Sequence record: PQ471515.1
Direction: 5' to 3' (one strand)
From: Escherichia phage Turkey3
DNA: 64,000 nucleotides
Shown here: positions 11,677-21,109 of the stretch, piece by piece
Numbering within the stretch: the first letter of the stretch is position 1
Layout: each line of letters starts with the position of its first letter
The notes under the pieces: model-generated
Database searches by the model: none
The model's input: only the letters and a program-made list of their open reading frames with translations
Told to the model about the DNA's origin: nothing
Program-made: the position numbers and the translations under genes

Positions 11677-11685
11677 AAAAAGTGG

Positions 11686-11714
11686 TTGACTCCGGTCAGC
11701 CATTTTGCTATTAT
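11686..11714 (+). promoter_or_regulatory. repeated terminator/promoter module, copy 1
   Basis: Hairpin TGGTTGAC..GTCAGCCA overlapping -35 TTGACT 11686; -10 TATTAT 11709; followed by CCCACAGGGTGCATAAGTGTATCT. Confidence 0.5.
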
Positions 11715-11886
11715 ATATTCATTGAGAGATAGCTCACTAGCCCACAGGGTGCATAAGTGTATCTATTATATAAGTATTGAGTACTGAAAACTATTTTAAA
11801 AAAGTACTTGCAAACTATCTCAATAAGCGTATAATGTTTTACATCGAAAGGGGAAACGGTTTCCCCTGGTAATAAGGAAACAAATC

Positions 11887-12228
11887 ATGACTATCTCAAT
11901 TGCTCAATCTAACTTTGAAAACGAAATCATCGCCCAGGCACTGCGTTTAAATGATGGTCGGGCCGAAATTAATTACGGTTTAAATTCAGGCGGTTGTGAA
12001 AAATATCAGTACTTTGTAACGGCTGATGGCGGTGTCCTGGGTATCAATACAGTTATTGTAAACATCCAAAAAATTAATTTCAATGATCCAGACGATAGCC
12101 AGTTTTACATCACTGGCGTAGACGTGAACTATGAGGATGACTCACTAACTGATGATCACACTGGCGAGCGGTTAGAAAGTGCATACGGTGAAGATGATTA
12201 TCAGTCCGGTCCAGAAGATTTCGAATAA
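11887..12228 (+). CDS. acidic hypothetical protein
   Basis: Promoter+hairpin, RBS AAGGAAA. Confidence 0.6.
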   Translation: MTISIAQSNFENEIIAQALRLNDGRAEINYGLNSGGCEKYQYFVTADGGVLGINTVIVNIQKINFNDPDDSQFYITGVDVNYEDDSLTDDHTGERLESAYGEDDYQSGPEDFE

Positions 12229-12324
12229 TATAAAAAAATAGTTTGACAATAGATTATAGTACTGTATAATAGTTTACATCAAGGGGAGAAAAACTTCTCC
12301 CCACTAACAGAGAGAGAAAACAAA

Positions 12325-12537
12325 ATGGCTAATATCCGGTCGAAATTAAAAAATGCAAAACAAGTTTTATTTTCAGATCATGAATACTTTAATAAAGATA
12401 TTACAGGAGTTACAAGTATCAAGGAAGTAAAAGAAAAAACCGGCGTTTTGTGTGATGTGCGATTAGTTGGGACATTTGGGAATAACGTGCTATATCGCTG
12501 CGGTGATTACAATTTTACACTGACTATCATTAACTAA
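12325..12537 (+). CDS. hypothetical early protein
   Basis: Promoter TTGACA..TATAAT + hairpin upstream. Confidence 0.6.
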   Translation: MANIRSKLKNAKQVLFSDHEYFNKDITGVTSIKEVKEKTGVLCDVRLVGTFGNNVLYRCGDYNFTLTIIN

Positions 12538-12620
12538 AAATATTATCACAGTACTATTGACATAGTTTGATAGTACTGACATAATAACTTTTATCAACTA
12601 CACTACTAAGGAATTAAAAA

Positions 12621-12800
12621 ATGGCTATCATCGCAAAAACTGAAATCGTTGGTCTGGATTCTATCATCATGACGTTTGAAGATCAAAAAGGTATGTATGT
12701 AGTTTCCTATGGTGATTATGTTCGGGAGTATGAAACGGTAGACGAAGCCTTTGAAAGTTATATTCGCCAGGTGAATAAAGCATACGACGACTACCGCTAA
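12621..12800 (+). CDS. hypothetical early protein (59 aa; paralog of 9143..9355)
   Basis: Not in track; same promoter type as 9143 gene; MAII..K N-terminus shared. Confidence 0.5.
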   Translation: MAIIAKTEIVGLDSIIMTFEDQKGMYVVSYGDYVREYETVDEAFESYIRQVNKAYDDYR

Positions 12801-12899
12801 AATATATTACCAGTACTATTAAATCTATTGACAACGTTTGATAGTACTGTATAATAAGTTTTATAAACAGTAGTTAACTTAACCTAAGAGAGAAATAAA

Positions 12900-13043
12900 A
12901 TGATCGCACTGGATTCATTCATCGACGCAGTACTGGCAAAAACTGGCGAGGATCTGACCGCAGAACAATACGCGATGATCGAGCAATGTCAGCAAAACGG
13001 TAAATCGGTGAAAGATACTGTTAAGATTATCCGCAAGATGTAA
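12900..13043 (+). CDS. small hypothetical protein (47 aa)
   Basis: Promoter TTGACA..TATAAT upstream, RBS AGAGAGAAA; terminator follows. Confidence 0.45.
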   Translation: MIALDSFIDAVLAKTGEDLTAEQYAMIEQCQQNGKSVKDTVKIIRKM

Positions 13044-13049
13044 GATTAT

Positions 13050-13077
13050 AGCCCACTGGTTAACGCTGGTGGGCTTT
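13050..13077 (+). terminator. probable intrinsic terminator
   Basis: AGCCCAC..GTGGGCT hairpin + short T-run. Confidence 0.4.
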
Positions 13078-13148
13078 AATCATTTACCCTATACAATGCC
13101 AGTACTAAACCGTTTATCTCGTTAGAATGCGTTACAGGACGTTTAACA

Positions 13149-13346
13149 ATGATTAGCATGAAATCAGTACAAAAACAAATAGAAACATTATCAAAAATTA
13201 AACGTAAACAATACTCCTTAGAATATACAATCAATGGTAACTATCATCTAATGAAAGAAAATAATTTTATAGTCATTGATGAATCATTGCAAATTATTAG
13301 TATAGTACTGAAAGCATTAATCAATGACAGAAAAAAATTAAAATAA
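13149..13346 (+). CDS. hypothetical protein
   Basis: AT-rich ORF, weak RBS. Confidence 0.35.
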   Translation: MISMKSVQKQIETLSKIKRKQYSLEYTINGNYHLMKENNFIVIDESLQIISIVLKALINDRKKLK

Positions 13347-13674
13347 TTGTTGACATACAATGCCAGTACTGGCATAATACTTACATCAAGACGAGAACGT
13401 CACCAACCCATAGGGTGCACAAATGTAACTATATAATATCGATCAATAAATGATCAAAAAAGTACTGGATCAATTTAGCATAAGGCGTATAATTCTGATC
13501 AATTCTTGATCAAAGGCAATAAACGTAGTTGAAATTATATAGAAAGTACAAAGGCGTTACCATTCGTGGTAATGCTGGGGAATATGTAGTATCATACGGT
13601 TTGAATAAAATCAGTACTAGTAGTATAATCGTAGCATTGCAGTACTATAGTATTTTTATAATGAGGTTAAAATA

Positions 13675-19049: not shown

Positions 19050-19135
19050 GTATTGACAAAGTATATCAGTACTGTATAATAGTTTACATCAAGGGGAGAA
19101 TAGTTCTCCCCACACCAATAAAAGGAAACAAAATT

Positions 19136-19408
19136 ATGTCCAGCTACTCCGCTACTATGATCATTAAAGATATGAACGGTAATCCTACTTCTGCTGGTGG
19201 ATCATTTGGAAACATTAATTTAGATGGTCGGTTATCCATGCAATCAGCCATCGATGCAGCGAAAGAAGTTTTTAAGAATGAATGTACTGTAAGTAAGCTG
19301 GATTATATGGGATTCGCTATCGAGAAAACTAATCGTTTTGTGAACTACAAAAATCCACTGATGATCGATACTAACCTGAAAGCAAACGAAGTGGAATACT
19401 TATTATGA
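19136..19408 (+). CDS. hypothetical early protein
   Basis: Promoter+hairpin, RBS AAAGGAAAC. Confidence 0.6.
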   Translation: MSSYSATMIIKDMNGNPTSAGGSFGNINLDGRLSMQSAIDAAKEVFKNECTVSKLDYMGFAIEKTNRFVNYKNPLMIDTNLKANEVEYLL

Positions 19409-19596
19409 CAGTTGAAGAAGTTAAAAAAGTACTGGCAGTACTACGATATCATAATCATTGCAAGGTGAAGAATGATCCTGATTATGTTGATTCATCCCTG
19501 GAGGAAGACACCTTAAACGCGATAAGCCATATGCAAACATTAGCAAAGCGTATGACCGAAAAGAATAGGCCGGACTATATCGGAAATAAAATTTAA
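19405..19596 (+). CDS. hypothetical early protein
   Basis: ATGA overlap with previous gene. Confidence 0.5.
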   Translation: MTVEEVKKVLAVLRYHNHCKVKNDPDYVDSSLEEDTLNAISHMQTLAKRMTEKNRPDYIGNKI

Positions 19597-19683
19597 AAAG
19601 TACTTGCATTGTAGTTAGATTAACGTATAATGTTTTATATCGAGAGGGGGAAATGGTTTCCCCTCAAGTCCAGGAGATACACC

Positions 19684-19947
19684 ATGAACACTATCGAAAT
19701 CACTATCAATGCACACGTATACGACAACGTAGTACTGCAAACTACTATGACCGCTAATGATACCAGTACTTTGCGGAATACTGTTATTAGTGCCGTATGT
19801 GCTGCAATCGGTGATGTTGCCCTGGAAAATGCAGAACATATCAACAACGGTTTCACTATGTGCAAACGTGATAACGCAAAACATATCATCGTGGAAGGTT
19901 ACGGCGGTGTAGAATTTAATGTTTATATGAAAAAAGTACTTGCATAA
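19684..19947 (+). CDS. hypothetical early protein
   Basis: Promoter+hairpin, RBS CAGGAG. Confidence 0.6.
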   Translation: MNTIEITINAHVYDNVVLQTTMTANDTSTLRNTVISAVCAAIGDVALENAEHINNGFTMCKRDNAKHIIVEGYGGVEFNVYMKKVLA

Positions 19948-20014
19948 TAACTAAAACAAAGTATAATGTTTTGCATAGGGGGAGATATCCTCCCCCACTA
20001 AAAGGAGTAATAAA

Positions 20015-20239
20015 ATGGCTAACTTTGATGAACTGATGCGGGAAGTAGCTAACCTGGCAGAAGAGAAGAAATCATTCGATTCTATCTATAACACCGCTCA
20101 CCGTGATTCAGTACTGGCATGTAACCAGGATCAAAAAGATGAACTAATCGCCACATATCATGAAGCATGGAAGTACTACCGACAATGGGAGAAAGAAGAA
20201 AGCGAGTCTACCATCGAAGGTATCAATAATCTAATCTAA
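20015..20239 (+). CDS. acidic hypothetical protein
   Basis: Promoter+hairpin, RBS AAGGAG. Confidence 0.6.
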   Translation: MANFDELMREVANLAEEKKSFDSIYNTAHRDSVLACNQDQKDELIATYHEAWKYYRQWEKEESESTIEGINNLI

Positions 20240-20313
20240 AGTTTTATTTCAGTACTATTGACATAGCTTGATAGTACTGATGTAATAACTTTACTAACTA
20301 AAGGGGAAACATA

Positions 20314-20571
20314 ATGGAGCAGTTCACACAATATCGGGTAAATCCTCAAGCTATGGCCTACGTAGAAGACCATAAAACGTTACCAGTACTGCAACCAGTT
20401 AAAGGCCGTATCTATCGTGGCCTTGCCTGGGATACGGCCCAGGATGGATATAAAACCGTCGCCGTGGGGATGTATTGCGGGAATGGTGAATGGTTTGATC
20501 CTAGCAATCCGATTGCACTTGACAGTACTGAAAAAATGAAATGGGCCGACTACATCGAAGATATTTCATAA
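20314..20571 (+). CDS. hypothetical early protein
   Basis: Promoter TTGACA..(TGTAAT) upstream; RBS AGGGGAAAC. Confidence 0.55.
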   Translation: MEQFTQYRVNPQAMAYVEDHKTLPVLQPVKGRIYRGLAWDTAQDGYKTVAVGMYCGNGEWFDPSNPIALDSTEKMKWADYIEDIS

Positions 20572-20661
20572 AAACTATTTGACAGTACTAACCAGTAATG
20601 TATAATGTTTTACATAGAGCGGGGGAATAGTTCTCCCGCCAATAGTTTGGAGTTAAACATT

Positions 20662-20862
20662 ATGTCTATCGCTATCGCCCTGGTTGAAGTACTGAAAGAA
20701 GCTAAAGCCAACCTTATCGATGTACAGATTAAGGAATTGCAAAACGGCTTAATCGGCTGTACTTGTACCGCTGGTGGAGCGGCAGACTATCGAGAACACG
20801 AATCACTCGAATCACTGGTTCGGTATCTTACCATGATCGTTGATGATTGGAGAATCATCTAA
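20662..20862 (+). CDS. hypothetical early protein
   Basis: Promoter+hairpin, RBS GGAG. Confidence 0.55.
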   Translation: MSIAIALVEVLKEAKANLIDVQIKELQNGLIGCTCTAGGAADYREHESLESLVRYLTMIVDDWRII

Positions 20863-20885
20863 CAAAAAAAAGAATAAAAAAGGGA

Positions 20886-20914
20886 TTGACTCCGGTCAGT
20901 CCCTTTGCTATTAT
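20886..20914 (+). promoter_or_regulatory. repeated terminator/promoter module, copy 4
   Basis: GGGATTGACtccgGTCAGTCCC hairpin overlapping TTGACT; TATTAT -10; CCCACAGGGTGCATAGGTGTATCT downstream. Confidence 0.5.
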
Positions 20915-21109
20915 ATACGCATAGACAAAAACTAGCCCACAGGGTGCATAGGTGTATCTAAAATATATAGTTAATAACGGTGAGTAACTATCTGCTGGTG
21001 GAGTGAAAACTATTAATAAAAAAACTATTGACAAAGTATATCAGTACTGCAATAATGTATCTCGTAGGGCGGCAATGGTGCGACGGCCCACAAAGTTAGG
21101 AGCTTCAAA

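Follow-up and report, generated by a model that had tools for sequence, protein, structure and literature searches.

Terminator and promoter modules repeated in the terminal repeat of a Rak2-like jumbo coliphage and a candidate family of early RNAs attached to them

We have analysed a 64,000-nt stretch of Escherichia phage Turkey3 (sequence record PQ471515.1), called the window below, in which an intergenic module combining a terminator-like hairpin, a promoter and a conserved box recurs at four places. The window belongs to Asteriusvirus (121Q/PBECO4-like jumbo coliphages), within the Rak2-like group, and the region of the modules shows 94-98% identity to members such as CRJP21, vB_Ec-M-J, G17 and 121Q. 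The record of vB_Ec-M-J (OQ718158) annotates its homologous stretch, positions 1-21525, as a direct terminal repeat (DTR) of 21,525 bp. The corresponding repeat of the window holds ~55 tiny genes that run in one direction, encode 40-200 amino acids and can be assigned a function in almost no case. A standard early promoter cassette occurs at least 22 times in the window, over a span of 3023-21514 (e.g. 11795-11872 and 18733-18810). Each module consists, in order, of an A run, the hairpin GGGATTGAC-tccg-GTCAGTCCC, TATTAT, the box and one of these standard cassettes. The positions of the DTR and of the four modules are as follows, with minimum free energies (MFE) from RNA folding and bit scores from cmsearch with the covariance model described below.

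1395..22360, + strand: DTR, approximate extent, from homology to OQ718158 (vB_Ec-M-J) and BLAST offsets
11679..11706, + strand: copy 1 terminator hairpin, stem holding the -35 element; MFE -16.9 kcal/mol, z -5.6
11686..11714, + strand: copy 1 sigma-70 promoter TTGACT-17-TATTAT; predicted start site A at 11721
11719..11770, + strand: copy 1 RNA motif (P1 11723-11736, box 11741-11752, P3 to 11764); 67.6 bits, E 2e-13
11808..11835, + strand: standard early promoter behind copy 1; equivalents behind the other copies at 15473-15500, 18746-18773 and 21028-21056
15337..15364, + strand: copy 2 terminator hairpin; MFE -19.5 kcal/mol, z -6.5
15344..15372, + strand: copy 2 promoter TTGACT-17-TATTAT
15377..15423, + strand: copy 2 motif, short form without P1; 41.7 bits; Chi site GCTGGTGG at 15425-15432
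18615..18644, + strand: copy 3 terminator hairpin; MFE -19.0 kcal/mol
18623..18651, + strand: copy 3 promoter TTGACT-17-TATTAT
18656..18707, + strand: copy 3 motif, full form; 66.5 bits
20879..20906, + strand: copy 4 terminator hairpin; MFE -19.5 kcal/mol
20886..20914, + strand: copy 4 promoter TTGACT-17-TATTAT
20925..20965, + strand: copy 4 motif, short form; 44.7 bits; Chi site at 20994-21001

An earlier note on this DNA had placed one recurring element at about 11680, 15335, 18605 and 20875, and sequence reading together with alignment finds it at all four places. The TTGACT of the hairpin, which had been said to double as a -35 element ahead of TATTAT, is called as part of TTGACT-17-TATTAT in 4/4 modules, each with 10/12 consensus matches. 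The hairpin had been described correctly for copies 2-4. Copy 1 carries a variant, GTGGTTGAC-tccg-GTCAGCCAT, which still forms 12 bp at -16.9 kcal/mol. The box reads (A/G)CCCAC(A/C)GGGTGCATA(A/G)(A/G)TGTATCTA and begins 20-27 nt past TATTAT, its core CCCAC[AC]GGGTGC lying at 11741, 15394, 18678 and 20936, and the standard early cassette does follow each box, 55-80 nt downstream. When the 23-nt box was searched with up to three mismatches, 5 matches were found against 0.00 in 100 shuffles, and the 22-nt hairpin gave 3 matches against 0.00. The copies are thus similar well beyond the promoter consensus, and chance is excluded as the source of their recurrence.

The overlap of terminator and promoter is likewise borne out in silico, as the -35 element lies within a very stable stem and the -10 element stands 17 bp from it. 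An independent consensus scan called terminator-like hairpins in the four modules on the + strand only. Their stems of 12-13 bp have MFE values of -16.9 to -19.5 kcal/mol and z scores of -5.6 to -6.5 relative to shuffles, and each has the form of an intrinsic terminator, in that 12-13 pairs are formed and five or more of the eight tail nucleotides are T. A U-G wobble, seen in the sequence of copies 2-4, makes the hairpin specific to the + strand. Between genera the stems covary (GGGG/CCCC, GGGA/TCCC, AGTACT/AGGTACT, AAGG/CCTT). The homologous hairpins are annotated as ARNold terminators or stem-loops in the G17 and GAP32 records, and the box is annotated nowhere. The proteins encoded after the four modules are mutually unrelated, which rules out segmental duplication of a gene with its module and means that the recurring unit is a promoter plus RNA motif rather than a module plus gene.

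The box is not limited to the modules. Searching with its 12-nt core gave ten copies, at 4572, 11741, 13407, 15394, 18678 and 20936 on the + strand and at 6564, 4640, 2703 and 2487 on the - strand. The related boxes previously noticed at 2470-2700, 4560-4650 and 6555-6575 are thus true family members, several of them read from the opposite strand. A covariance model was built from 19 equal-length copies (six phages and the window), using an ungapped alignment without structural fitting, and was run on the window with filters off. It returned 10 full copies and 1 partial copy on both strands, all within 2458-20965, and no credible match in the remaining ~41 kb of the window; every motif copy of the window lies inside the DTR. 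In the close relative TH47 (350 kb), all 10 model matches fall within one 16-kb stretch, which is the repeat region. The four copies of the earlier note therefore understate a family that numbers at least 10 copies, spread over both strands, is confined to the terminal repeat and occurs clade-wide in Rak2-like phages, and even on the + strand a fifth copy (13386-13436) had been overlooked. The copies outside the four modules are these.

2458..2509, - strand: motif in the non-coding left end of the DTR; 51.9 bits
2639..2658, + strand: partial copy (P3 half only) followed by a T7 run; 13.2 bits, E 0.61
2674..2725, - strand: motif in the non-coding left end of the DTR, convergent with the partial + copy; 30.9 bits
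4518..4601, + strand: + arm of a convergent pair, promoter TTGACT-17-CATAAT with motif at 4551-4601
4611..4690, - strand: - arm of the same pair, motif at 4611-4651 with its promoter
6493..6623, - strand: stand-alone antisense copy with promoter, motif (6535-6585), AGTACTG linker and its own bidirectional terminator hairpin (6493-6511); a small RNA of ~100 nt is predicted
13350..13436, + strand: fifth + copy, promoter TTGACA-17-CATAAT (13350-13378) and motif (13386-13436), without an upstream terminator hairpin

Comparison with related phages, proposed earlier as a check, finds module and motif throughout the Rak2-like relatives. BLAST with one module gave 74-98% identity in phages of Escherichia, Salmonella, Klebsiella, Cronobacter, Pectobacterium, Erwinia, Yersinia and Serratia, all of them Rak2-like. 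The best match lies inside the record-annotated terminal repeat in five records, including vB_Ec-M-J, Muenster, CBB and fENko-Kae01 and not including PA5oct. The covariance model gave 152 matches in 49 loci, again all from Rak2-like jumbo phages (Asteriusvirus, Mimasvirus, Eneladusvirus, Klebsiella RaK2-type, Erwinia, Serratia BF and 355-366-kb uncultivated contigs), and 131 non-redundant copies are spread over eight genera-level groups. There was no full-model match in 100 loci that carry the bare pattern (80 bacterial ones plus small viral contigs); bacterial genomes match the bare pattern by chance only and fail the full model. A host mimic or prophage origin was rejected, as 5,426 complete E. 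coli genomes contained no match and plasmids only chance matches of 24-26 nt. Membership of a known RNA family was rejected as well, since Rfam 15 gave no relevant match at E<=1 on window 1-23000 and none at E<=10 on two short segments surrounding copies, where the highest scores reached 8-17 bits and the gathering scores are 38-75 bits. A DnaA box, a CsrA site (GGA in the loop), mimicry of 16S helix 45 and an OmrA/B-like seed were set aside because the variable positions of the box hit essential residues of those sites or only a minority of copies fit. The motif is not mentioned in the searched literature.

The genomic contexts of the copies differ. In 30/131 copies, the four modules among them, a terminator hairpin holding the -35 element precedes the motif, and a standard promoter and gene follow it. 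An upstream terminator hairpin is present in 50/131 copies overall and missing in 81/131. Convergent pairs form a second context, with 19 non-redundant examples, and in 14 of the 19 exactly 56 nt separate the GGGTGC starts (4578/4634 in the window); each predicted transcript of such a pair would continue into sequence complementary to the box of its partner. Antisense copies with their own promoter and terminator and without an open reading frame (ORF) make up the third, with predicted RNAs of ~100 nt. Counterparts of the copy at 6493-6623 occur in Klebsiella, Erwinia, Pectobacterium, Yersinia and Cronobacter phages (five genera), and these antisense copies have, as predicted from sequence, what is expected of a small-RNA gene, namely a promoter, a conserved structured body, a terminator and no ORF; the four modules, which have no such terminator, do not. 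The motif never adjoins a ribosome-binding site. As the promoter and motif thus also occur as stand-alone terminated genes and as convergent pairs without genes, we read the family as probable immediate-early small RNAs.

Wider convergent pairs in relatives, with a spacing of 67 or 74 nt, enclose a Fur-box-like palindrome, AATGA(T/G)AATCATT. It is found in Yersinia, Klebsiella, Erwinia and Serratia-phage relatives (loci L004, 347-359; L005, 3835-4360; L007, 2619-2631 and 3157-3169; also L011, L035, L047 and L052), and there is no such site in the coliphage window.

Statistics for the family were taken from the 131 non-redundant copies of all loci, of which 126 distinct sequences entered an alignment fitted to the model. 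The motif is locked to a promoter: the best sigma-70 site ends 20-30 nt ahead of the box in 129/131 copies, and at least 10/12 consensus matches are found in 72% of copies compared with 3.7% of control 70-mers from the same DNA. The spacing is bimodal, at 25-29 nt in a full form and 20-22 nt in a short form. The expected start site is a pyrimidine-A dinucleotide 7 nt past the -10 element, whose A is kept in 125/126 distinct copies, and the box begins ~20 nt beyond it.

The motif is ~52 nt long, and the predicted RNA reads pppA-N, hairpin P1, linker YUAR, CCCAYAGGGUGC, RKARNU, GYRUCY, AU. P1 is a variable stem of 3-5 bp with an A-rich loop (GCGAAA, GAGAAA, AGAACAA, AGAUAA; GNGAAA type). About 40 different stem sequences occur across the copies, and within one genome the stem differs freely, with complementarity alone retained. 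In the ungapped 19-copy alignment all 4 pairs are changed on both sides and 100% are paired, a figure that arises partly by construction because the 19 sequences were picked for a 4-bp stem. Among the 126 distinct sequences, aligned to the model and hence leaning towards structure, 95% are paired, compared with 30-54% when the partner is slid, and each pair shows 3-5 pair types. In a positional control, at least 3 Watson-Crick pairs were formed by 92% of copies and 48% of shuffled segments, and at least 4 by 49% and 16%, respectively. Copies 2 and 4 of the window are without ~5 nt between promoter and box and have thereby lost P1.

Two further pairings involve the 12-mer. P2, RCCC-(3-4 nt)-GGGU, is 98-99% compatible, its loop being variable in both sequence and length. 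It is supported by CCU...AGG double changes, seen in three copies of different phages, and RNAalifold picks P1 and P2 unaided. P3 pairs GGGUGCR with UGYRUCY; it is wobble-rich, and its five outer pairs are 93-100% compatible. Its partner columns vary by transitions only, keeping G-U/G-C or U-A/U-G, whereas neighbouring loop columns show free transversions. P2 and P3 compete for the G triplet and are mutually exclusive, and single-sequence folds flip between them. Many pairs in P1 and P3 are G-U, which become A-C mismatches on the other strand, so that folding is confined to the sense strand. A pseudoknot between the P1 loop (AGAUA) and a 3' UAUCU appears in coliphage single-sequence folds and was rejected, since the 3' consensus is the same whatever the loop type. 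A three-way junction closed by linker UAR with CUA was discarded at 68% paired, as was a mini-ORF starting in the P3 loop: no more than ~60% of 84 copies could have NUG there, the 'codons' after it vary non-synonymously and there is no conserved stop.

The modules invite comparison with the promoter-early stem-loops (PeSLs) of T4-like phages (Arbiol et al. 2010, PMC2839356; Comeau et al. 2014, PMC4122927). Both have an A-rich tract upstream and many copies among small orphan genes, and the nt-1-type PeSL stem, A3-4G3-loop-C3T3-4, resembles AAAAGGGA...TCCCTTT of the module. In silico the modules possess a strong sigma-70-like early promoter and an adjacent stable stem-loop, the predicted terminator, and they lie in a plastic region of small orphan genes where breakpoints relative to close relatives fall at promoter cassettes, two of them at box modules. 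They differ in that the -35 element is inside the terminator stem, where the parts of a PeSL stand side by side, and in their location within a 21-kb terminal repeat of a Rak2-like jumbo phage, outside the T4-like group. A promoter-locked RNA motif of ~50 nt follows here and is absent from the PeSL description. It also occurs without a terminator, in convergent pairs and on the antisense strand, so that a definition by promoter and stem-loop only fails. We therefore do not file the whole module as a PeSL and treat it as a PeSL-like cassette fused to a new RNA family. Indel and replacement breakpoints relative to vB_Ec-M-J, G17 and TH47 also lie on standard cassettes (e.g. 3491/3570, 10924/11206, 18809/19592, 19048/19148), in the manner of PeSL-style shuffling.

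Against this background of composite anatomy, copy number, restriction to the repeat, promoter lock, P1 covariation and clade-wide conservation, we favour the view that the module joins its PeSL-like terminator/promoter cassette to the 5' end of a previously undescribed conserved RNA of ~50 nt. With the same measured confidence the motif may be called a transcribed, functional RNA element, any specific activity being much less certain, and the terminal repeat would on balance carry a multi-copy gene family of immediate-early small RNAs or leaders. Of the options that had been offered for the box (regulator site, small RNA, recombination hotspot), the small RNA is the one favoured, by the fixed promoter distance, the covarying hairpin, the sense-only G-U pairs and the terminators present in some copies. 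RNA rather than DNA is probably the active form, and the invariant 12-mer probably serves as the recognition surface for a putative conserved partner.

The RNA, its end and its partner are deduced from sequence, and the following course of events is proposed on that footing. The RNA of an upstream early gene would fold into the 12-13-bp hairpin with its U-rich tail and terminate. The same DNA in duplex form would present TTGACT-17-TATTAT to host sigma-70 RNA polymerase, which would start at the conserved C-A, 7 nt past the -10 element and 14 nt beyond the hairpin (15 nt in copy 1). The predicted starts are 11721, 15379, 18658 and 20921 for the four modules and lie near 6591, 4657, 2731 and 2515 for the antisense copies. 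The new transcript would begin with two unpaired bases followed by P1, and then the YUAR linker and the invariant CCCAYAGGGUGC. This 12-mer could toggle between P2 (RCCC-AYA-GGGU) and serving as the 5' strand of P3 with the downstream GYRUCY. Where a standard promoter and gene follow, the RNA might also be a long leader, or be freed by processing in the AU-rich linker, and the RNAs would act through the putative conserved partner.

A hairpin within 2-4 nt of the 5' end shields E. coli RNA from 5'-end-dependent decay, as in the ompA type of stabiliser. P1 is likewise 5'-proximal and is probably, by analogy, a 5'-end protecting hairpin. Such a stabiliser needs no conserved sequence, however, and would leave the 12-mer, P2/P3 and the copies without an mRNA unexplained. 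Non-coding RNAs in the terminal repeat of a jumbo phage have a distantly related precedent in the Pseudomonas jumbo phage PA5oct, whose long terminal repeat encodes ncRNA001 and ncRNA002, both highly expressed from early infection by RNA-seq (PMC7318152). These are 236-451 nt long and single-copy, unlike the motif of ~50 nt in ~10 copies. Homology between the two was rejected because the motif is absent from the PA5oct RNAs and there is no sequence similarity.

Several points weigh against an RNA function, in addition to the selection and fitting of the P1 alignments mentioned above. Transcript maps for this clade were not found in the searched literature, so that transcription, 5' ends and 3' ends are predictions. 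Pfam found no RNA-binding partner among 40 repeat-encoded proteins. The fold of the motif is weak in the four module copies (-7 to -10 kcal/mol, z -0.3 to -1.4 relative to shuffles), and the case for RNA structure consequently rests on P1 covariation and substitution patterns and not on stability. Being invariant, the 12-mer offers no covariation, and its conservation could just as well be that of a DNA sequence. P1 is missing from about 20% of copies, copies 2 and 4 of the window among them, and the data do not choose between P2 and P3, which cannot both form fully. In the four modules, finally, the motif is not followed by its own terminator, and its transcript would continue into the next promoter.

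A rival reading is a DNA operator, in which a phage or host protein would bind the 12-mer at about +20 to +32 and block or tune the promoters, for example in post-early shut-off. The 12-mer is invariant across genera as its flanks drift, its distance from the promoter is fixed, as expected of a roadblock operator, and the RNA fold is thermodynamically unremarkable; the box may, indeed, be a regulator site. We nevertheless regard an operator as unlikely, because it leaves unexplained the compensatory changes in P1 (~40 stems, always complementary), the sense-only G-U pairs and the transition-only variation opposite GGGUG. Moreover, the 12-mer lacks dyad symmetry, since CCCAC and GGGTG are complementary without being reverse complements, and no DNA-binding candidate was identified besides the DksA/TraR zinc finger, which acts on polymerase and not on DNA.

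HK022 put and lambda nut are short RNA elements made of small hairpins that lie just past early phage promoters. A similar cis-acting, co-transcriptional role, with nascent P1/P2 as a put- or nut-like processive antiterminator or as a hairpin-stabilised pause near +40, seems to us about as improbable as the operator. The layout fits, with two small hairpins right after strong early promoters, and the P1 loops (GAGAAA, GACAA-like) recall the purine-rich loops of boxB. The alternative P2/P3 pairing is switch-like, and a U run after P3 in three copies would suit a terminator or attenuator. The motif differs from put and nut in having no sequence similarity, no Rfam match, a 5'-end lock and often no downstream operon. 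Sequences like boxA (CGCUCUUA / UGCUCUUUAACAA, one mismatch allowed) occur in 4/131 and 0/131 copies, which does not fit a lambda-type nut/rrn element, and ops sequences occur in 0 of 131. The motif is also paired with a terminator in the four modules, where antitermination would defeat the terminator of the next module. Antisense and convergent copies have only early-gene antisense downstream, and the 5'-end lock suits an RNA gene better than a leader element.

It is very unlikely that the copies are PeSL-type recombination cassettes only, homogenised by gene conversion for the shuffling of early ORFans, with a functionless box. Breakpoints relative to three close relatives do lie on repeated promoter cassettes, including 13347 (the promoter of the copy at 13386) and 20867 (the start of module 4), in the pattern described for PeSLs (PMC2839356, PMC4122927). 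The idea of a recombination hotspot holds for the repeated promoter cassettes generally, on which indel breakpoints fall, and not for the box specifically. Most breakpoints are at the standard early cassette rather than at box modules. Conversion within a genome cannot yield an invariant 12-mer and a covarying hairpin across genera with unrelated flanking genes, and copies of the same genome vary freely in the P1 stem and keep its complementarity. Least probable of all is a transcription-dependent role of the DNA, in which R-loops or stalled complexes at the promoter and G-rich box prime replication or protect or process genome ends: the confinement to the terminal repeat, the fixed 56-nt convergent pairs ~1 kb from repeat boundaries in several genera and the dense co-oriented Chi sites of the region make a purely circumstantial case, P1 covariation is neither required nor explained, and no iterons, AT-rich unwinding element or origin-like features are tied to the motif.

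Among the neighbouring genes, Pfam assigned domains to few of the 40 repeat-encoded proteins and found only the following.

3512-3811 and 5618-5854: two DUF7249 paralogues
13675-13929: DksA/TraR zinc finger early protein
13996-14349: GNAT acetyltransferase early protein
17162-17413, + strand: ParE-like toxin domain protein of 84 amino acids (PF24732, E 4.6e-11)
18020-18601: early protein with a weak protein-kinase match

The standard early cassette, which stands ahead of nearly all the tiny genes, is built of an A-rich UP-like tract, (AGTAC)TTGCAA or TTGACA, a spacer, TATAAT, a G/C-rich hairpin in the 5' untranslated region and a Shine-Dalgarno sequence. A second promoter type, TTGACA-N-(C)AGTACTGGCATAAT, lies in a 77-nt repeat at 9050-9126, 9345-9421, 12527-12603 and 20228-20304, of which the first two are 100% identical. 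This type also drives the motif copies at 4551, 13386 and 6585 (- strand), and after the second-type promoters at 9078, 9373, 12555 and 20256 other sequence stands in place of the motif. Past the DTR (22500-54100) there are several arrays of short paralogous genes with conserved in-frame blocks; the block ...GGAACAAACTATCAA... occurs 11 times within 22.5-27.6 kb, and other families lie at 28.7-49.2 kb.

The palindrome AGTACT is ~15-fold enriched in the window (264 vs 18 expected) and densest in 1-24000, and CAGTACTG is ~80-fold enriched (62 vs 0.7 expected). The sites lie in promoter spacers (CAGTACTGTATAAT) and just upstream of -35 boxes (AGTACTTGCAA), and 58/131 motif copies have AGTACT 30-44 nt past the box start. 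In TH47 the enrichment is genome-wide at ~20 per 10 kb, with a peak of 61-75 per 10 kb in the repeat. AGTACT may be an operator or a modification site.

Chi sites are also concentrated in the repeat, with 9 on the gene-sense strand of the DTR compared with 0.17 expected and none on that strand in 22.9-64 kb of the window.

1983, 8447, 13065, 14525, 15425, 17784, 19193, 20770 and 20994, + strand: Chi sites
1971 and 8385, opposite orientation: Chi sites

Two of these belong to modules 2 and 4, just downstream of the box (9 nt past the conserved segment in copy 2 and ~35 nt in copy 4), and a back-to-back inverted pair lies ~600 bp from the left DTR boundary. Each of eight related loci has 6-11 sense and 0-2 antisense Chi sites, and in TH47 (350 kb) 8/17 Chi sites of that orientation are in the 17-kb repeat region. 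With this orientation they would act on RecBCD that enters at the right end of the genome. A published precedent exists in phage P1, where Chi sites cluster near the terminal repeats (PMC12315714), and for the Rak2-like clade no such report was found.

Returning to the motif as an early RNA, the ~10 copies per repeat, or ~20 per packaged genome, suggest that dose matters. We tentatively propose, as a possibility we would not yet lean on, that the motif RNAs serve the phage in host takeover, as a new class of molecule. Some ~10 sigma-70 immediate-early small RNAs (20 per virion genome) would be encoded on the first DNA to enter the cell, the switching of CCCAYAGGGUGC would titrate or reprogram a conserved enterobacterial factor, and the 56-nt convergent pairs would provide antisense or double-stranded RNA control. 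The factor may be a ribonuclease, an RNA chaperone, RNA polymerase or a defence sensor.

Phage therapy work makes use of jumbo phages of the Rak2/121Q group. In these phages the motif marks a distinct class of early promoter, and no other non-coding feature of the repeat is as well conserved across the phages, whose hosts belong to at least 7 genera. The covariance model parts it cleanly from background, so that it is sharply defined and searchable, and it gives a concrete starting point for mapping transcripts, pulling down its putative partner and engineering insulated expression units. If the RNA does act in trans, a multi-copy RNA would join the known tools of phage takeover.

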